The position numbers were made by a program, and so were the translations under genes. Shown piece after piece: positions 2,873-62,921 of a stretch of 64,000 nt of DNA. Numbering within the stretch: the first letter of the stretch is position 1; each line of letters opens with the position of its first letter. A model generated the notes under the pieces. That model searched no databases and had not been told where the DNA came from. It saw nothing but the letters and a program-made list of their open reading frames with translations. Source of the stretch: Eledone cirrhosa (Eukaryota); NCBI GenBank assembly GCA_964016885.1, contig OZ024750.1:20522001-20586000 (forward strand), read 5' to 3'.

Positions 2873-3118
2873 ATTTATAACTGAATTTTTAACCGTTGGT
2901 CAATAAATGATACACGTTGATTGCCAAATAAATTAACGGTGGAGATGTAAAAGATACAGAAGCGAAAACCAACCAAACAGTGAAGGTGTTTGGTTATTAT
3001 TTCTGGCAATATTATTACAACAATATGACCCTCCCCATGTATAACAATACATACATATATATATATATATATACACATATATATATATATATATACACAC
3101 ACATATATATATATATAT

Positions 3119-3194
<76 letters not shown>

Positions 3195-3256
3195 GTACGT
3201 ATATATATGTTAACAAATTCAGGACCTCGACAGCAGAGGCTGGCCGTCTCGACCGC

Positions 3257-3819
3257 AAAAGATGCAATATTTAGACAAATCACAGAGGCAATAAACATAA
3301 ATGAACTCCAACCAAAATTAAATAGAAAACATGAGTGGAACAGCAACATCACAACTTACAATTAAGGACAAAATGAAAACACACACGCACATAGAAAAAA
3401 CAACCAACCAGTAACATATAAATAAACAAATAAATAAACGAATATAAACACACACAGAGACCAGGATGTAACACATGCGCAAACTAAGCACACAACACAC
3501 ACACACAAAAACAAGATGGCGTAGGACAGAACAAAGGAGAGGCACAAAAACAAAGAAAAGAATCCCCAGTCACTGAAGAGGTCACATAATGTGTGACGAA
3601 AGAACTTTGACAATATATAAACAATCATCTGGTTGTGGAACCAACCAACGAACCAGAAATGTATAAATTCCTAACTTTATAAATCTATTATAATAAATTG
3701 AAGTGAAAGCATCTGGTGCGTGTGTTTCTTATTGGCAACATGACCCTCCCAACGTATAACAATATCGGTTTCAACACACGTTTTCAGATAAAGAATCTTG
3801 CTAAACAAATTCAGAAACG

Positions 3820-3822
<3 letters not shown>
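3257..3822 (+). mobile_element. shorter copy of the 6067-6960 PLE family (last ~35 codons + 3' UTR)
   Basis: Translates [35 protein letters not shown]. It is a high-identity reverse complement of 6067-6630. Confidence 0.88.
3568..3612 (+). ncRNA. minimal type I hammerhead ribozyme
   Basis: guca-CUGAAGA-g-gucaca(uaaug)ugugac-GAAAG-AA-CUU-ugac. Differences from the 6282 copy fall mostly in the stem II loop. Confidence 0.78.
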
Positions 3823-4003: not shown

Positions 4004-4318
4004 ATATATATGTGTGTGTGTGTGTGTTTGTGTGTCAGGATGCATGTACATACCTCCACTCACAAAATATTGGTCACCTTAAGTCTTTGGTAGAATTCAC
4101 ATGTTGAATGTGCTACGTGGTTGGAGCCAGTACCACACGGTGAAGAACCAAGCTCCTTTCAAAAATTAATTGTGGCACTTCATTCACTCAGCAACATACC
4201 CGAAAAATGCTGAATAATTTTTAAAAGCTTTGAATTAGTAGGGACGTTGCGGTGTCAGATATCTTGCTGTGTTCATTTGCCGGAGAATTTAGGTAGTGGT
4301 TTTTACAGCAATAATGTA

Positions 4319-4507
4319 TAATTGTTTCTACTTTTGGCACCAGGCCAGCAATTATCTCACTGCATTACTGGTACTTTATTATATCGACTCCGTAAGGATG
4401 AAAGGCAAAGTTAACTTCGGCGGGATTTGAACTCAGATCATAAAGGGAAGTAACTCTATGCTTCAAAGCATGGCGCCGGACCCTCTACCGATAGTGCCAA
4501 TCCACCG
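4319..4507 (-). mobile_element. tRNA-derived SINE, same family
   Basis: Full-length homology to the 47690 copy. Confidence 0.85.
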
Positions 4508-6066: not shown

Positions 6067-6960
6067 TTTCGTTTCTGAATTTGTTTAGCAAGATTCTTTA
6101 TCTGAAATCGTGTGTTGAAACCGATATTGTTATACTTTGGGAGGGTCATGTTGCCAATAAGAAACACACGCACCAGCTGCTTTCACTTCAATTTATTATA
6201 TATTTATAAATTTACAAATTTATAAATCTATAAATTTCTGGTTGGTTGGTTGGTTCCACAACCAGATATTTGTTTATATATAGTCATAGTTCTTTCGTCA
6301 CACACTCTGTGACCTCTTCAGTGACTGGGGATTCCTTTCTTTGTTTCTGTGCCTCTCCTTTGTTCTGTCCTACGCCATTTTATTTCTGTGTGTGTGTTGT
6401 GTGCTCAGTCTGCGCATGCGCCACATCTGGGTGTCTGTGTGTGTTTATGTTCATTTATCTATTTGTTTATTTACATGGTTGGTTGTTTGTTCTATGTGTG
6501 TGTGTGTTTTCATTTTGTCCTTAATTGTAAGTTGTGATGTTGCTGTTCCACTCATATTTTCTATTTAATTTTGGTTGTAATTCTTTTATGTTTATTGCCT
6601 CTGTAATTTGTCTAAACATTGCGTCTTTTCTGTGTGTAGATTCTATTTTTATTTCTATGTTCTCTAATTTACCCTTGTGTTCTATCTTAGCATGTTGGTA
6701 GAGTACAGATGATTCTTTATTATCTTGAAGGTCTCGCCAGTGTTCATTTATCCGTTCCCCTACACTACGAGCTGTCTCACCTATGTACACTATATGTTTG
6801 TCTCTACATTGTCCTTCAGTACATCTTATGCTATACACTACATTTTTAGTTTTACAGTTAATATGGGGGCTTATTTTACAGGTTACACATTTCTTATCTA
6901 TACATGAGGGTCTTTGAAAAGGGTATGTCTTGCTAATAAGTGTTTTTACAGAGGTACCTA
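6067..6960 (-). mobile_element. 5'-truncated Penelope-like element of a third lineage (GIY-YIG + 3' UTR), flanked by (TA)n
   Basis: ORF 6521-7018 (true coding part ~6521-6960): CIDKKCVTC..NCKTKNVVYSIRC…VYIGETARSVGERINEH…[17 protein letters not shown]. Confidence 0.88.
6282..6326 (-). ncRNA. minimal type I hammerhead ribozyme
   Basis: aguca-CUGAAGA-g-gucaca(gagug)ugugac-GAAAG-AA-CUA-ugacu: 5-bp stem I, 6-bp stem II, 2-bp stem III. Confidence 0.8.
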
Positions 6961-7025
6961 ATATTATATTATATATACATATATATATATGTGTGTGTGT
7001 GTCTGTATGTATATGCATGTGTGTA

Positions 7026-20113: not shown

Positions 20114-20605
20114 TTAAGTTATTTTATAGTGAGAGAATTTAGCTTTTAGTTTGTGGTTGCAGTATAATGATCGTTCAATTCTATCGTTAAGTAGTTTGTT
20201 TTGGGATTTTAGTAGGTAAAATAGCTCAAGGTTACATAACCTGCAGTACTTCAAACCACTCCGATATGCATTTGCGCTGGAAAGTATATCCCATTTTAAG
20301 GTGAACTGTTGGTTGTGTTCACGGAGTTGCCAGGTCTTGTTGGCGAGCGTGGTCACAAAACGGTGATTCTGATGTTTGATTGAGAATCGATGACGGTACC
20401 AGCGGGATTTAAACGATGTGGTGGTAGATCCGATATAATACCATTTCTGGTCGTCCGATTCAACCGTGCATTGGTAAACAATGTTGGACTTTAGGCATTC
20501 ATTCTGCAATGGACATCTTTCAGGTAGATGGCAGTTACATGCTTTGTTGTGGGTAGCGGGTATACCATGGATAGGTTGTGATAGCGGTACAGGTGGGTTG
20601 TGCAA
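20114..20605 (-). pseudogene. PLE GIY-YIG endonuclease domain
   Basis: CNC..CPL..CLKSNIVYQCTV…YYIGST..FKSRWYRH…CRLCNLE…LLNDR.E…CNH, a typical PLE endonuclease pattern. Confidence 0.85.
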
Positions 20606-21256
20606 TATCCGTCTCCCATTTAGTGGTTGGGAGGCAGATATTGCGTTCTGCCCACCTGTTACTAAAATGTTTTGTTTTGTAGAGTTGTTTAATTGCCTTA
20701 AGTTAAGTTTTTTTATGTATGCTTCAAGGTGCCGTGGAGTATGATAGTCTAATAGTTTTGGAGTTCAGAATTTTGCTGTACTTATGGGAACTAGGGAAGT
20801 GTTTATTGATTAATTTAAAGAATGAAAGAGATAGTTTTGTACTAATCGAGGCATTAAAAATAGGATTATACCAGATATACTTTCTACAACGTGATTTATT
20901 TGGTGGTGAACTTCTATTATTAGTATGTCTATATATATATATATGTGTGTGTATATATATACATATATATATATGTATATATATATGTATATATATATTT
21001 GTGTGTGTATGTATATATGTATATATATATACATACATAATTCTTGGATAATTTAAAAATAATGGAACGTCTATTTGGAAAACATCACATACCGATGCAT
21101 ATATATATATATATATATATTCATAAAGTGTTCCTGGTTCGAAGCCAAATATATTACATTACAAAGATATTTCCCACTGTCCCTGTTTTTTCTATTGTAC
21201 CATATATGTAGGTATTTTTGGTTGATAAAGAAACAGTTATTTTTCTTTTATTGAAG

Positions 21257-21740
21257 GCATTGGATTGGCAATATCGGTAGACAACTTGCTTTGTAACATA
21301 GTGTTATGGCCCTTTACATTATGAGTTCAAATCCCGCCGGGGTTAGTTTTGCCTTTCATGCTCATGGGGTCGATAAAATAAAGCACCAGTAATGCACTGG
21401 GGTCGATATAATCGACTTTCCCCTCCCCTTCACATTGCCAGCCATTTGCCTAAGGTAGAAACAATTATTATTTTTATTATTGTATATACTATTTGAGTTC
21501 AAATCCCGCCAAGGTTAACTTTCCTTTCATCCTCACGGGGTCGATAAAATAAAGCCCCAGTAACATACTGGGGTCGATTTAATCGACTTTCCCCTCCCAT
21601 CAAATTACTGGCCTTGTTCCTATACTAGAAATCATTATTATATATACTTTGCCTTTCATCCTTACGGGGTCGTTAAAATAAAGTACCAGTAATGTACTGG
21701 GAAATTGCTGGCATTGTGGCAAAAAGTAGAAACAATTATT
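21257..21740 (+). mobile_element. three tandem SINE copies, progressively 5'-truncated (~21257-21470, ~21494-21638, ~21647-21740)
   Basis: tttgcctttcatc..cggggtcgataaaataaag..ccagtaa occurs three times, each copy ending in an att-rich tail. Confidence 0.82.
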
Positions 21741-22639
21741 ATATATACTTTTGGTAATTGATCGATGGGTAATCTTATATTTTCATTACGCAGAGACATG
21801 TCAATCGTTGATGTTACTTAAAAGGTTTCGAATTTAATTCATCAAAATGTCAAGAATTCTCGGATTTTGTTGATTGCTTATTTATAATAAAGTTTAAACA
21901 CTTCATTAATAGAATCTACGTATTGCATCTCATCTGACACTGCATCTAGAATCTAGAGTGTCTGTTTACAATCATTACTATTTAATAAAGGCATGTTGCT
22001 TAGGGGTTTTTAACCATAAGGACATGACTTAGATTCTTTCGTAAAAATTCATGTGGCCCAGTATTTAGTGTGTTGCACTGACAATCGTATCAGCATTGAT
22101 TCGATTTTCGTTTGCGATGGCACATTATTTTCTTTAACAAGACACTTCATTTCGCTGTACTCCACTCCACTTCAATCACATGAAGGAATGTAAACAAGTG
22201 TACTTTCTATGGCTGGAAGTTTACCGGTTCAGATATTTGCAACATATCGTTTCCAGAGATAAAACACCATAGAAACCATTCTATAAATAAAGGCACATTT
22301 ATACATGGGGTGTTTCGAACCTTCTCAATGTTTGAATATAGATAGAGAGAATCAGAAAGAGGGGCTGTGTGTGTGTGTGTGTTTGTGCTCGAGTGAGACA
22401 GAATGAACGATCGAACGAAAGTGAGACAGCGACAGATGGGAAGTGTAAAAGTGATAAAGAAAAAAATCAAAAGCTATATTGATGAGGGAATGTATTCACC
22501 GAGTTTGAAATGATAAAAGACAAAGTTGATTTCTTTGTGAGTTGAACTCACAGCTCAGTAATAAATTAAAAAATCTTATTCTCCTTATCACATTGCATTG
22601 CATATAAATATATATATACAGATAGAGAGAGAGAGAGTT

Positions 22640-26222: not shown

Positions 26223-26375
26223 ACTGTTAATTGTTATCGTCTGTGTGTGTGTGTGTGTGTTTGTATGTGTGTGTGTATGTGTATGTGCATAGATATGTAT
26301 ATGTGTGTGTGTGTATATTTATATATATATATATATATAAATAAATAAATGAAATCATTATTTTTATTCTTGTTA

Positions 26376-26566
26376 GGGCGGAGGATTGGCAGTATCGGTG
26401 GAGAGTCGGACGCCATGCTTTCCAGTATAGTTACGTCCCTTTACGATCTGAGTTCAAATCCCGCCGAGGTTGACTTTGCCTTTCATCCTTACGGGGTCGA
26501 TAAAATAAAGTACCAGTAATGCACTGGGTAATTGCTGGCCCTGTGCCTAACGTAGAAACAATTATT
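26376..26566 (+). mobile_element. tRNA-derived SINE, same family
   Basis: Near-identical to 47690-47877. Confidence 0.88.
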
Positions 26567-36363: not shown

Positions 36364-36440
36364 CATATATTTATAATAATAATAATATTAGTAATAAACG
36401 AAAGATATACACTTCATATCATCTGTATTTATTTCATTTT

Positions 36441-36590
36441 GGCAGTATCGGTAGAGAGTTGGACACCATGCTTTCTAGAATAGTTACGTCCCTTTACAGT
36501 CTGAGTTCAAATCCTTACGGGGTCGATAAAATAAAGTTCCAGTAATCTACTGAGTAATTGCTGGCCTTGTGCCTAAAGTAGAAAGAATTA
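36441..36590 (+). mobile_element. SINE, same family, internal deletion
   Basis: ggcagtatcggtagag…ctgagttcaaatccttacggggtcgataaaataaag. Confidence 0.82.
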
Positions 36591-36718
36591 TATATAATTA
36601 GATGATGCAAAGTTTTATGTATAACATGTCTTCTCAAACAAAATTCATAATAAATGTATAATTGTTTTCCTAGTACGCTGGTAAAAAAACGAACTGAACA
36701 GATCGATGGCCACTAAAT

Positions 36719-37881: not shown

Positions 37882-37937
<56 letters not shown>

Positions 37938-38049
37938 CAACAGATTGAAACTTAAGCAAAGAATCGGTGATTTCACTCTTAACGGGATCTTCTGAAACTA
38001 AAAAAATAAATTTGTGAACGCAGAAGTAAATATTTCGAAAAACGTTACA

Positions 38050-46377: not shown

Positions 46378-46548
46378 AAAGTGAAAAACATAAAATATAA
46401 CTACTCCATTACCAAAGGTTTCTGGATCACAGACGATAATAATATACGCCTGGATCGGTCGTTAGACAGAGATGTTGACCGATCCAGACGTATATTATTA
46501 TCGTCTGGATCGGTCAACATCGTAGTTATATTTTGTGTTGTTCACTTT
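46378..46548 (-). mobile_element. fold-back element of the same family as 39307, with nested hairpins and a degenerate HHR at 46404-46471
   Basis: 27-bp outer inverted repeats. Minus strand: cucugu-CUAACGA-ccgauccaggcg…cgucugugaucca-GAAA-CC(UUU)GG-UA-auggag. Confidence 0.72.
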
Positions 46549-47223: not shown

Positions 47224-47689
47224 ATGGTTGGGTGTGTCTGTGTTTGTGTGTGTTAAAGTTTTTAAATATTAAATATATGCTTACACCATAGACATAGACA
47301 AACACACCCAATGTATACGAGCATATACACGTACACACAGACACACAAACACACATGTATATATGTGTGTGTGTATGTGTGTGTATATATATATATATAT
47401 ATATGTGTATGTGTGTGTGTACATGTATATGTGTATGTATGTATAGATGCATACATTGAGTGTATATATATATATATATGTATATACATACATATATATA
47501 TGTATAATATGAATAATGTTTTACACAATTATCTTGTATGTGCGTCCACAGACTAGGGGGTCTAGTTATTGCCGCCATCGTATATTGGAGTAGGTTTTTC
47601 CAAATTGACCCCTCATTAGCCACGAGGTAAATATACGCGAAGTTACTTCGACTGGGATTTCTCAAATAAATAATGGAGAGAACTATAAT

Positions 47690-47877
47690 TGTTTCTACGT
47701 TAGGCACAAGGCCAGCAATTACCCAGTGCATTACTGGTACTTTATTTTATCGACCCCGTAAGGATGAAAGACAAAGACAACCTCGGCGGGATTTGAACTC
47801 AGATCGTAAAGGGACGTAACTATGCTGGAAAGCATGGCGTCCGACCCTCTACCGATACTGCCAATCCACCGCCCTCA
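47690..47877 (-). mobile_element. tRNA-derived SINE with 14-bp target site duplication
   Basis: A-box-like tggcagtatcgg and B-box gagttcaaatccc. TSD gagagaactataat at 47676-47689 and 47878-47891. Confidence 0.9.
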
Positions 47878-48704: not shown

Positions 48705-48872
48705 CCAGCAGTATCGGCAGAGGGTCGGACCCCATGCTTTTGCACATACATTCTGAGTTCAAATCCCGCTGTGGTTAACTTTGCCTTTCATCGACAGGGG
48801 GGGTCGATATTATAAAGTACCAGTAATCCACTGATAATTGCTGGCCTTGTGCCAAAGTAGAAACAATTATAT
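48705..48872 (+). mobile_element. SINE, same family
   Basis: cagtatcggcagagggtcggac…gagttcaaatcccgc…aattgctggccttgtgcc. Confidence 0.8.
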
Positions 48873-49170: not shown

Positions 49171-49172
<2 letters not shown>

Positions 49173-49369
49173 GAAAAGAGTTAGGATCTCGGAGGCTGAC
49201 CTCCGGCCGTTTCGACAGATAGATCCGAACAGATCGGATCTAGCTGTCGAAACGGCCGGAGCTCAGCCATCGGGTTCCTGACTCTTTTCCTATTACCAAC
49301 TCTACTACCCTGAGCATCGAGTGGTGTAGTGCGTTATGGTCCACCTGGTTCCTTACAGCACTTTCTTTG

Positions 49370-49372
<3 letters not shown>
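49171..49372 (+). mobile_element. short fold-back element, family A (palindrome 49172-49290 + tail), in (TA)n
   Basis: ~57-bp arms around loop acaga. Each arm carries a 3' half of an HHR (gucGAAAC-GGC…GCC-RUC). Tail gcgttatggtccacctggttccttac. Confidence 0.85.
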
Positions 49373-52778: not shown

Positions 52779-52870
<92 letters not shown>

Positions 52871-52878
52871 GAGAGAGA

Positions 52879-53232
52879 AATCTACCAAAATACACGGTAG
52901 TGTCGAATCCGCATGAAGAACTCAATGTAAACCAAATATCATGAAAAGAGAAGACGCATTCAAAAATGTTCGATAAAAATCATAGGAAAACAGAGTCAAG
53001 ATAAATTAATAAAAACAATGTAATAAAAACAAAGAACAAGTTCCTTATATTAAAAAATGCATCATTTTACGATCGTTTCTAGGATGTATATGTGTTTTGG
53101 TATGTATATCATATAGATCTATGTAAACATATCACAAATTATCAGAGGAAATATACATGCCGTCCTCAGAAATATTTTTTTAATATAAGGAACTTGTACT
53201 TTGTTTTTATTCCATTGTTTTTATCAATTTAT
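52879..53232 (-). mobile_element. fold-back element: ~58-bp inverted arms (53001-53058 / 53175-53232) enclosing a hammerhead, plus tail; flanked by microsatellites
   Basis: ataaattaataaaaacaatgtaataaaaacaaagaacaagttccttatattaaaaaa versus its reverse complement, with ~3 mismatches. Confidence 0.82.
53063..53174 (-). ncRNA. type I hammerhead with intact core and ~83-nt stem II
   Basis: uauuu-CUGAGGA-cggcauguauau…auauacauccua-GAAAC-GAUC-GUA-aaaug. Stem III is palindromic (ACGAUCGU). Confidence 0.75.
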
Positions 53233-53444
53233 ATATATATATAATGCACACACACTGATACACACACACACATGTTTTATTTTATTTTTCTAATGCGTAT
53301 TCCTTGGAGGGGGGGGGGGGGGGCACGGTCCTCAAACACTAAATCCAGCGAGTACTGTTAGAAGCTACCCTAACCAACTGATCTGTTTAAATCCCCAAGC
53401 GTGATGAGCCAAGTTTATGGATATGCTATCTCAATTCGGAGATG

Positions 53445-53975: not shown

Positions 53976-54926
53976 ATTCATTGCTTTATTTCTAAACAAA
54001 GTCATTGCCTATATTTAAATTCATGACAGAAGTTTTGTATTGTAAAATTGGGGACAATTTAATTCAATTTAAAATGAAATGGGTTAATACAAATATGAAG
54101 AATAGTAATAAACCTAACGAGATATTGATTACAAATTTTATAGCAATAACTTTATATAACCAGGTTTTGTAAAACTGTTGTATTTTCTTTTTAACACATT
54201 ATTCACCCGCTTGCTTATAAACATATATTGATCAAACAGTGTAGGATTTGTGATATGAGATATATTTTCAAACATTATAAAATCATTAATAACATTACAT
54301 TATGTTTTTTTTTTATATTTTATAATCTAATGCTTTTAAGATATAATTAATCTCTTTGATCGTACTGAAATAAGTTAAAATCTCTTTCCCCTTTAGACAT
54401 GGATGACAATTATGAATTATTCTCTTCTTCTTACCTTCGGAAATAAAATATTGAATGATTAAATATAAAATCTTGCCCATAAATTTTGATAAAGTATTTA
54501 ACACTGATAACGCCGACTAAAACTTATCGTGTGTGCCGGCAATAATAGCGAGAGGTTAAGCATTAGTTCATTACGCACACTTATGCGCATGCGCATATAC
54601 TCTCACACATACATGCATACACACACACATACACATTTAATATATATATATATATACACATATATATATATATATAGACACATACAAAATTGCGTCCGTA
54701 GGCGGTATGCCGGTCGAGCACTCGATGCTCGCGTAGAACAGAGTATGATAGTATAATAATAGAGGAACAAAGAATCAGTTTTGCATCATAACATATTTGA
54801 TTAAATATTGCATATGTTTCACTGTCGATCAGCTCGAGGATCGATCTATTATTGACCGAACCAGAATCTGGATTCGAACGATCCTCTGATATGCCACAGT
54901 ATGTAAGCACGTATCGGATGTTGTGC

Positions 54927-56385
<1,459 letters not shown>

Positions 56386-56599
56386 AATTGTCATAAAATA
56401 TAAACACACATACGCACGGAATCACTACTATTAAAGACCAGAGACCAATTCTGTAGAATCAGGTTTATTCATTGACAGACCATGCCTTTGTGTGACCAAC
56501 ACATCCATGTTAAACCCTGCACGTGCACACACGTATATCTATATATATATGCGCACACAGAATTATTTTAATTTCACTGCCCCAACTTCTTATATTATG

Positions 56600-56810
56600 G
56601 AAAAAATATATGTGTCTGTATGTATATATATATATATATATTTGAAGGCCATTTCTCTGTGTGTGGGTGTATGTATGTATGTGTGTGTGTGTGTGTGAGT
56701 ATGTGTGTGCATGTGGATGTATGTATTGTGTGTGCGTGTGTGTGTGTGTGTGTGTATGTATGTGGGTATCTGGATGTATGCGTATGTGTATATATATATA
56801 TATATATGCA

Positions 56811-61551: not shown

Positions 61552-61640
61552 AATATTTGCCCTACGGTTCTTATATATTTGATATATATTTATCTTTATC
61601 GAGCCCTCTTTGGATTTTAGTCTTCAAATTTATTATTAGT
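61551..61640. repeat. single-arm fragment of the 62604 family
   Basis: Near-identical to 62834-62921. Confidence 0.8.
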
Positions 61641-61783
61641 ACTATATATATATATATATGTAGGAAGTGAGTTTTATTGTAGTACAATAAAGCAATGCAG
61701 ATATCGGATAAGAAGCACTCTACAGTTTGTAGGACTGGAGTATGCATAATATAAGATCAAAAGATGGTTAAAGGAGTTCCATG

Positions 61784-61854
61784 TATTTTATTATGCGCAT
61801 TTCAAAAACAAACATCATCATGCAATAATATTTGTGTTTTCATCAGATAAAACA
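61784..61854 (-). ncRNA. intact type I hammerhead ribozyme (mirror copy)
   Basis: Exact reverse complement of 61956-62026. Confidence 0.88.
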
Positions 61855-61955
61855 GGAGAACATTATATGAAGGCTAAAAAACACTTGTGGATAGTGCAGT
61901 TGATTTAAAACTTCACTATCCACAAGTGTTTTTTAGCCTTCATATCATGTTCTCC

Positions 61956-62026
61956 TGTTTTATCTGATGAAAACACAAATATTATTGCATGATGATGTTT
62001 GTTTTTGAAATGCGCATAATAAAATA
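61956..62026 (+). ncRNA. intact type I hammerhead ribozyme
   Basis: uguuuuau-CUGAUGA-aaacacaaauauuauu(gcau)gaugauguuuguuuuu-GAAA-UGCGCA-UA-auaaaaua: 8-bp stem I, 16-bp stem II (one C/U mismatch), palindromic stem III. Predicted cleavage after 62018. Confidence 0.88.
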
Positions 62027-62056
62027 CATGGAACTCCTTTAACCATCTTTTGATCT

Positions 62057-62136
<80 letters not shown>

Positions 62137-62603: not shown

Positions 62604-62921
62604 TAATAATAATTAATGTGAAGACTAAAATCCGAAGAGGGCTCGATAAAGATAATATATATACAAAAATATATAAAACCATAGTGAAAATATTTATTAA
62701 AATAACAGATTGAAGTTTAAGCAAAGAATTGCTGCTTTCACCCTTAACGGGATCTTCTGAAACTAGTTTCAGAGGATCCCGTTAAGGGTGAAAGCAGCGA
62801 TTCTTTGCTTAAAATTTAATCTGTTATTTTAATAAATATTTGCTCTACGGTTCTTATATATTTGATATATATTTATCCTTATCGAGCCCTCTTTGGATTT
62901 TAGTCTTCAAATTTATTATTA
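62604..62921. mobile_element. ~160-bp-arm imperfect palindrome centred on ACTAGT (62762-62767), in (TA)n
   Basis: The arms are reverse complements with scattered mismatches. Partial family copies at ~24791-24941, 37780-37815, 37931-38000 and 61551-61640. Confidence 0.85.

Follow-up and report, generated by a model that had tools for sequence, protein, structure and literature searches.

A hammerhead motif beside a locus-specific inverted arm, most likely part of a Penelope-like 3' end, in Eledone cirrhosa

The 64-kb window analyzed here, meaning the whole stretch of contig OZ024750.1 under study, has ~23-40% GC, with tandem-repeat masking over 18% of its length. On its minus strand, 52879-53232 forms a long hairpin joined to a hammerhead motif and set between microsatellites. 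The flank outside the arm is an (AT)n run followed by a (CA)n run (53233-53272; like the other microsatellite, recognized from sequence and given no strand). The arm (53176-53232) is a 57-nt inverted copy of 53001-53057 and stops at the short 3' end of the repeat family described below. It is followed by the 5' strand of stem I, UAUUU (53170-53174), approximately where the direct copy starts; the core box CUGAGGA, C3 to A9 (53163-53169), outside the family's read coverage; an 83-nt stem II made of a basal helix and an insert that varies among subfamilies in the reads (53080-53162); the GAAA box, a 2-bp stem III with a GAUC loop and the GUA triplet (53068-53079), in the deepest read bin; and, from sequence and pairing, the 3' strand of stem I, AAAUG, with a 5-nt bulge (53058-53067). 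The arm's partner (53001-53057) is the element's 3' region as far as the short 3' end. Beyond it lies a tail, an extension of ~123 nt to the family's long 3' end (52878-53000), which is carried by the direct copy only, is seen in reads and is kept in a relative. A (TC)n(TA)n(GA)n microsatellite (52779-52877) flanks the tail. When 53232-53176 is set against 53001-53057, the 57 positions comprise 54 Watson-Crick pairs, one G.U pair and two mismatches, in agreement with the initial annotation, which had described inverted arms of ~58 bp running directly into stem I. Within stem I, UAUUU (53174-53170) pairs with AAAUG (53067-53063), and the bulge (53062-53058, 5 nt) faces a single unpaired A. The inverted copy starts ~10 nt downstream of the predicted cleavage site, and the few core-proximal bases of the arm may be native distal stem I.

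The elements of the motif follow the order of a type I hammerhead: CUGAGGA (53169-53163), 83 nt, GAAA (53079-53076), AC-GAUC-GU and A17 at 53068, with cleavage predicted between 53068 and 53067. By the core definition of PMC3088659, all 13 core letters are present, namely C3-U4-G5-A6-N7-G8-A9, G12-A13-A14-A15, U16 and H17. Stem III is an 8-nt palindrome, ACGAUCGU, with a computed self-duplex energy of -10.0 kcal/mol, and lies 67 and ~190 nt from the family's two 3' ends. The core-adjacent pairs 1.1-2.1 and 15.1-16.1 are present; 10.1-11.1 is a C.A opposition, which the criteria of PMC3088659 would reject and which differs from the consensus G10.1-C11.1 of PMC4209133. C.A or U.U does occur at the stem II base of listed hammerheads of Penelope-like elements (PLEs), as in PLE-X1_cBra and Penelope-1_HM (PMC8557442 File S2). 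The basal helix of stem II (53162-53152 with 53090-53080) reads C.A, G.U, G-C, C.C and then 7 bp, with 9 of 11 positions paired. The core had been called intact, which is accurate for its 13 letters and inaccurate for the stem II base, where the first opposition is C.A and the fourth C.C. The dyad attributed to the stem II insert is present as a perfect 10-nt palindrome (53113-53122, no strand assigned) within the 14 nt originally proposed, and is broken in the relative.

Further head-to-head structures lie in the window. At 61660-62064, two 154-nt arms, identical at 152 of 154 positions, face each other across an 11-nt spacer; both ends are (TA)n, an 86-nt tail extends one arm, and each arm carries a hammerhead (61964 on the plus strand, 61846 on the minus strand) with an 8-bp stem I, a 36-nt stem II (z -3.39) and the stem III palindrome AUGCGCAU. 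Judged by sequence, this pair appears young, its type I hammerheads look intact, and a cleavage assay would be better directed at it than at 52879-53232. The element at 49172-49372 is likewise head-to-head, with a palindromic junction, (TA)n ends and a tail of ~80 nt on one arm; its hammerhead-like motif consists of the GAAA half and has a GGCC loop, and related fragments lie near 3212 and 3907. At 62616-62912, a head-to-head element with (TA)n ends has its junction just before a hammerhead-like motif. This element and the fragments at 37933-38000 and 61557-61629 read CAGA(A/G)GA, not CUGANGA, in all three copies holding the motif. Two PLE 3' ends with an ORF tail and a common (TA)n end occupy 3271-3821 (plus strand) and 6068-6970 (minus strand); the compact hammerheads behind their GIY-YIG-type ORF ends, at 3573 and 6321, have an 18-nt stem II and were missed by Rfam.

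The 354-nt element folds at -98.7 kcal/mol (z -8.68), a value equalled by none of 100 shuffles. The fold exceeds the shuffles so far because of the arm: without it, the ribozyme part has a z of -1.17 and 20 of 200 shuffles do as well, and the stem II insert alone has a z of -1.80, with 11 of 200 as good. The rod takes in only the first 232 of the 354 nt and leaves 122 nt of tail outside. The hammerhead fold lies 6.8-12.4 kcal/mol above the minimum; among control hammerheads the values are 4.9-7.8 (61964) and 1.3 kcal/mol (6321), and the control weakens the test. Nothing in the window reached an Rfam gathering threshold, and no hammerhead was found at 52879-53232 at E up to 10, a negative that is uninformative because Rfam also failed to detect the control hammerheads at 61964/61846 and 6321. 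The type I motif with a palindromic stem III exceeds chance, with three occurrences in the window where 200 block shuffles averaged 0.035 (at least one in 7 of the 200, three in none); a looser hammerhead scan gave six matches against a mean of 0.33 over 200 shuffles. A second box, CUGAUAA at 53145-53139, which the relative keeps, could in principle be the true core instead; this was rejected because it has no in-register stem II (z -0.63) and no stem I.

The relative, at 2553-2872 on the plus strand, begins at a (TA)n run and is homologous to the element (nhmmer E 7.6e-10; blastn 71% over 169 columns). As had been recognized from the letters, it keeps the block around the palindrome (AAACGATCGTAAAA, 14 of 14 letters) together with the insert and the tail. 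Its stem II is 97 nt long. It reads CUGGAGA at 2563-2569, where A6 is changed, and UAAA at 2667, where G12 is changed; on its letters, the hammerhead is a dead motif. We found no 5' strand of stem I and no arm at 2553-2872. A second PLE-like 3' fragment, at 2873-3045, abuts the relative and has 29 nt in common with the family at 3271-3821; it stops ~57 nt before the end of that family, which suggests short and long ends again.

Sequencing runs X1, X4, X5 and X6 of one animal, four of the seven listed, were aligned at 80% likeness; none of the seven is recorded as RNA, which says nothing about expression, and X4 was not treated as RNA. At most 0.18 of the stretch's words occur in any one run, and none of the listed pieces covers it in full; the animal may belong to a related species or may lack the insertion at 52879-53232. 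X5 and X6 are RAD libraries, and their reads therefore represent a biased subset of loci. The repeat family is abundant, matching 1,799 of 17,142,217 contigs in X1, 35 of 762,587 contigs in X4, 4,403 of 12,467,656 reads in X5 and 4,091 of 12,785,554 reads in X6. Pattern scans for the family gave no match in metagenome, genome or viral contigs. The proposal that a hammerhead motif resides in a repeat family is borne out. Coverage is deep over 52875-53160 and peaks at the block holding GAAA and the palindrome. In the bin connecting stem I and the arm with the core (53161-53173), depth is 43 in X1, against 13,637 in the adjoining bin and 763,734 in the core; it is 0 in X4, and 1.15 and 1.85 in X5 and X6, where core depth is ~2,650 and ~2,500, respectively. 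Expressed as a share of the adjoining bin, the junction holds 0.3% (X1), 0 (X4), 0.7% (X5) and 1.3% (X6), and none of the 16 pieces listed, out of 1,849, bridges the arm-core junction. Alignments would have been extended across the junction by the 57 matching bases of a constant arm, so the nearly empty bin shows that the arm is no constant part of the family. The low depth on the arm itself played no part in this argument, since a read matching both arm and partner is assigned to just one of the two. Summed contig depth was not taken as a measure of copy number.

The 5' arm had been taken as a constant part of the element, and the transcript as a viroid-like rod topped by a ribozyme. Neither view is supported: the arm is absent from the relative, and junction depth is at most 1.3% of the adjoining bin in all four runs, so that, as far as could be tested, the arm is unique to this copy. 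A native rod with a constant arm, whose annealed cleavage products favour religation or priming, is largely refuted and retains a negligible probability, even though the hairpin at the locus is real and in register with stem I, and even though a few native pairs beyond the bulge are plausible, the 61964 hammerhead having a distal stem I helix. Besides the missing arm and the near-empty bin, it has to contend with the tail left outside the rod, with differences between arm and partner that lack compensation, with 3' ends that run into (TA)n, and with the absence of any tandem head-to-tail unit (the window holds single copies, the 3' loose ends are (TA)n, and the only back-joint has 2 reads). 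Hammerhead viroids and viroid-like rods have a long duplex beside the hammerhead, as does 52879-53232; unlike hammerhead viroids, this locus is genomic and linear, with one ribozyme on one strand and a partial rod that is not conserved in its family. A single type I cut that is re-sealed restores a linear RNA, not a circle, which needs two sites. If the 52879-53232 copy were cut, the duplex would, on the modelled fold, hold the products, and re-sealing would restore linear RNA. The earlier idea of a rod transcript that would hold its cleavage products is right for a long hairpin at this one locus and is not supported as a trait of the family.

The two halves of the core differ in their coverage: CUGANGA lies outside the reads, and depth is greatest over the GAAA-stem III-UH half. 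Alignments could be clipped by a few mismatches near the junction, so the nearly empty bin does not show a family without CUGANGA. Were the CUGAGGA box peculiar to the copy at 53163-53169, by chance or as a by-product of fold-back, the family would have a half core only. This is improbable, though several observations fit it: the box is uncovered by reads; at the single loose end listed at 53158, from an X4 contig, stem II is preceded by GA and not by a full CUGANGA; the box segment and the GAAA side show near-complementarity and are paired in the predicted fold; and HHR_half_core motifs are reported in cephalopod Naiad PLEs (PMC8557442). However, the relative matches the box at 6 of 7 positions at the corresponding place, the box lies in register directly beside the stem II basal helix, and the motif is rare in shuffles. 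Moreover, among the 40 of 96 rows listed, position 17 is A or U only, both of them allowed (U in 23% of X1 depth and in 53-55% of reads). No substitution falls in 53069-53085 among those same rows.

The reads place two 3' ends in the family. The short end, at 53001, runs into (TA)n in 7 X1 contigs, and 233 of 427 and 250 of 438 reads end at 53007; the long end (52878-52896) runs into (TA)n in 11 and 13 contigs and in 260-680 reads, the (TA)n loose ends at 52878 itself numbering 11 X1 contigs, 260 X5 reads and 275 X6 reads. The arm stops at the short end and the direct copy at the long end. In the reads, the (AT)n run at the long end (52878) is preceded by a perfect 6-bp inverted repeat and CTAC. 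CTAC is also the terminal sequence of the 61660 family, and the end of the 52879-53232 copy is now (TC)n. Eight joints were listed, and six of them are inversions or fold-backs at points other than the arm junction: four sense fold-backs (53010/53013, 53014/53020, 53051/53063 and 53058/53059, one X1 contig each), an unequal inversion (52980/53082, one contig) and a fold-back at 53158 (1 + 4 reads). The remaining two were left out of the count, being interpreted as alignments that jump between arm and partner. An inverted 5'-truncated copy with variable junctions is seen at 52879-53232 and in six of eight joints, with one contig or 1-4 reads per joint; two 3' ends, a tail on one arm and a microsatellite target are also present.

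These ends bear on whether the arm came later at the DNA level, by a template switch in repair or replication, or is an assembly artefact, or whether the locus is a 232-nt MITE with 57-bp TIRs. The AT-rich microsatellite flanks are unstable, and arm and partner do resemble terminal repeats, but a random DNA event would not know where the family's recurrent short 3' end lies, and the arm stops exactly there. The three differences and the 5-nt gap argue against a chimeric-read palindrome, and a MITE is excluded by a partner that is internal to the family and an arm-core junction that is not amplified. Taken together, we consider explanations of this kind very unlikely. On the features tested, a retrozyme array, a MITE and a viroid-like rod were rejected (no tandems, an unamplified junction and an arm absent from the relative). 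Arm and partner both have the less common state at 53037-38, where other letters make up 61-62% of X1 depth and 77-81% of RAD reads. Near-fixed differences from the reads number 10 in 296 nt of the direct copy and 2 in 57 nt of the arm (~3.5% each, among the 40 of 96 rows listed). This equal divergence and the common state at 53037-38 are as expected if the two pieces arose together and decayed neutrally.

We therefore regard the locus, with good though not full confidence, as a decayed PLE-type 3' end with an inverted 5'-truncated copy and a copy-specific arm. It is similarly probable that the 57-bp rod belongs to the 52879-53232 locus only and has decayed neutrally. Membership is assigned by architecture, no ORF being linked to the family and both copies in the window being truncated at the ribozyme; the locus works like, and most likely is, a PLE-type 3' end with an inverted truncated copy. 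Structurally, a direct, 5'-truncated 3'-end piece stands head-to-head with a shorter inverted piece, and both outer ends lie in microsatellite of this AT-rich animal genome. The similarly built head-to-head elements of other families in the window support this reading, as do the hammerheads behind PLE-type ORFs there and in two PLE loci fetched from genome bins. The target and the ends are observed; a PLE reverse transcriptase/GIY-YIG protein would have nicked the (TA)n target, and copying would have proceeded from the long 3' end through the hammerhead to stem I. That target-primed copying would have used two start sites. The inverted piece, itself observed, would stem from the same event, arising either through fold-back self-priming or through priming on the other strand. 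We infer, at somewhat less than even probability, that the self-complementary stem I supplied the short homology for fold-back of the cDNA. An arm in register with stem I would then need no selection for a long stem, because a self-complementary stem I lets the cDNA snap back. The 5-nt bulge and the few pairs beyond it may be native, by analogy with the 61964 hammerhead. In the parent RNA the hammerhead, if it acts, would do so by dimerizing at the ACGAUCGU palindrome, by analogy with PLE hammerheads (PMC4209133).

Against a PLE origin, the tail is ~123 nt long, compared with 30-40 bp in PMC8557442, and stem II exceeds in length any in File S2 of that paper. In addition, X1 depth drops ~300-fold within 13 nt, which gradual 5' truncation alone does not explain; a short element that is non-autonomous, or sequence divergence at this point in the 52879-53232 copy, may account for it. 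A possible though doubtful alternative is a non-autonomous parent of ~300 nt whose start is the hammerhead and which relies on a PLE for mobility in trans, the arm being copy-specific all the same; it differs from the PLE-type 3' end in the parent only. Both copies in the window begin within ~10 nt of C3, depth collapses at 53160, and animal retrozymes have been proposed to derive from PLE pLTRs and to occur as monomers (10.64898/2026.07.22.740005). Tandem arrays were not seen, however, and the loose ends at 53127 are heterogeneous (agreement 0.41-0.43), fitting variable truncation. Native sequence upstream is absent from the alignment reference and would be invisible under either parent.

The locus resembles several described systems. 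PLE hammerheads have a short palindromic helix III, act as dimers with low activity and occur in opposite-strand pairs 100-700 bp apart (PMC4209133), and a hammerhead dimer model has been described (PMC6765202). Like those of the Hydra, Neptune and Penelope/Poseidon clades (PMC4209133, PMC8557442), the present motif is type I with a 2-bp stem III and a palindromic loop; unlike those in File S2 of PMC8557442, where stem II spans ~10-55 nt, it has a stem II of 83-97 nt. EN+ PLEs similarly have (TA)n-biased targets, heavy 5' truncation, an inverted 5'-truncated copy at the 5' end and a one-sided extension of 30-40 bp (PMC8557442), and a tail at one end only is the PLE pattern (PMC8557442, PMC3846280, PMC11167929), the tail being defined by two reverse transcriptase start sites (PMC11167929). 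The locus is also like the inverted pLTR of Pen2a_Av in Adineta vaga, where direct and shorter inverted pieces stand head-to-head with a tail on one and self-priming is proposed (PMC3846280); that inverted copy is 37 bp shorter, whereas the one at 52879-53232 lacks the whole ribozyme. In contrast to the PLEs of PMC4209133 and PMC8557442, the inverted piece here begins downstream of the ribozyme, and the junction is unequal by ~115 nt. The microsatellite flanks leave no target-site duplication readable. Animal non-LTR retrozymes (PMC7229834; 10.64898/2026.07.22.740005) are likewise ~300 nt, low in GC, non-coding and type I, probably acting as dimers; retrozymes are tandem, however, and the present family differs in having no tandem repeats, (TA)n ends and no small loop II for loop-loop contacts. 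Cephalopod Naiad PLEs with HHR_half_core (PMC8557442 File S1) have the same (TA)n preference and widely spaced core halves, the reported spacing being 35-50 nt (PMC8557442). Three short family motifs had no match in the supplementary file of PMC8557442, in which line breaks could hide one, and the cephalopod Naiad 3' ends in that supplement did not, by eye, resemble the family. In the literature searched, which left figure-only supplements, Repbase and Dfam outside, we found no description of the family or of a PLE hammerhead with so long a stem II, a weak negative.

All four head-to-head junctions in the window lie in, or within ~55 nt of, a hammerhead or hammerhead-like motif. A speculative and, in our estimate, unlikely extension is that the family is abundant and PLE-dependent with a working dimer-type hammerhead and an 83-97-nt stem II insert, and that ribozyme stems prime the fold-back and set the inverted junctions. 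If so, such loci would yield ribozyme-capped long double-stranded RNA as a by-product. As it stands, 52879-53232 is unremarkable repeat DNA among thousands of PLE-type ends, with a copy-specific inversion that mimics a designed rod, and the 83-97-nt stem II is its one unusual trait. If confirmed, hammerheads with a very long stem II would escape present descriptors and Rfam, and their numbers in such genomes would consequently be undercounted. Unequal junctions in register with a ribozyme stem would likewise, if confirmed, offer a genome-wide test of self-priming, a step in the formation of PLE inverted repeats that PMC8557442 and PMC11167929 leave open.

PLE coding remnants are also present in the window. 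PF01541 was found in two of the seven window proteins scanned, the GIY-YIG ORF remnants at 55048-56382 (plus strand) and 20117-20764 (minus strand); a GIY-YIG-like stretch at 6524-6970 (minus strand), recognized by eye, has no Pfam match. The 55048-56382 protein has RT/GIY-YIG homologues, the named ones mostly from molluscs or mollusc symbiont bins, which points to a probable molluscan host. The surrounding 54907-56630 is a PLE ORF remnant of ~445 aa between (TA)n runs, with the C-terminal part of the RT, a CX4CxxC linker as in Neptune-type elements, and GIY-YIG; a motif scan found no hammerhead in its 3' UTR. This nearest PLE ORF is on the other strand from 52879-53232, and its 3' UTR is unlike the family there. 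When PLE loci were sought with the window PLE protein, none of 55 candidates was confirmed; an alignment of 16 of at least 120 homologues gave 6 confirmed among 11. Nothing like the 52879-53232 family was seen in the six fetched loci beyond a 15-nt match. Two of the six (L002 and L006) have, downstream of the stop codon, a minimal hammerhead whose stem III is palindromic; a further match within an ORF was taken as chance. The six loci (L001-L006) are animal-type PLE contigs within bacterial genome bins and are probably host contamination. Imperfect inverted repeats outside microsatellites occur at 1606-1746 and 46425-46511, with no hammerhead motif seen in them. Finally, a dispersed repeat of ~190 nt is present in at least six copies at 72-90% identity (4317-4507, 21237-21743, 26375-26565, 36439-36592, 47685-47875 and 48708-48871).
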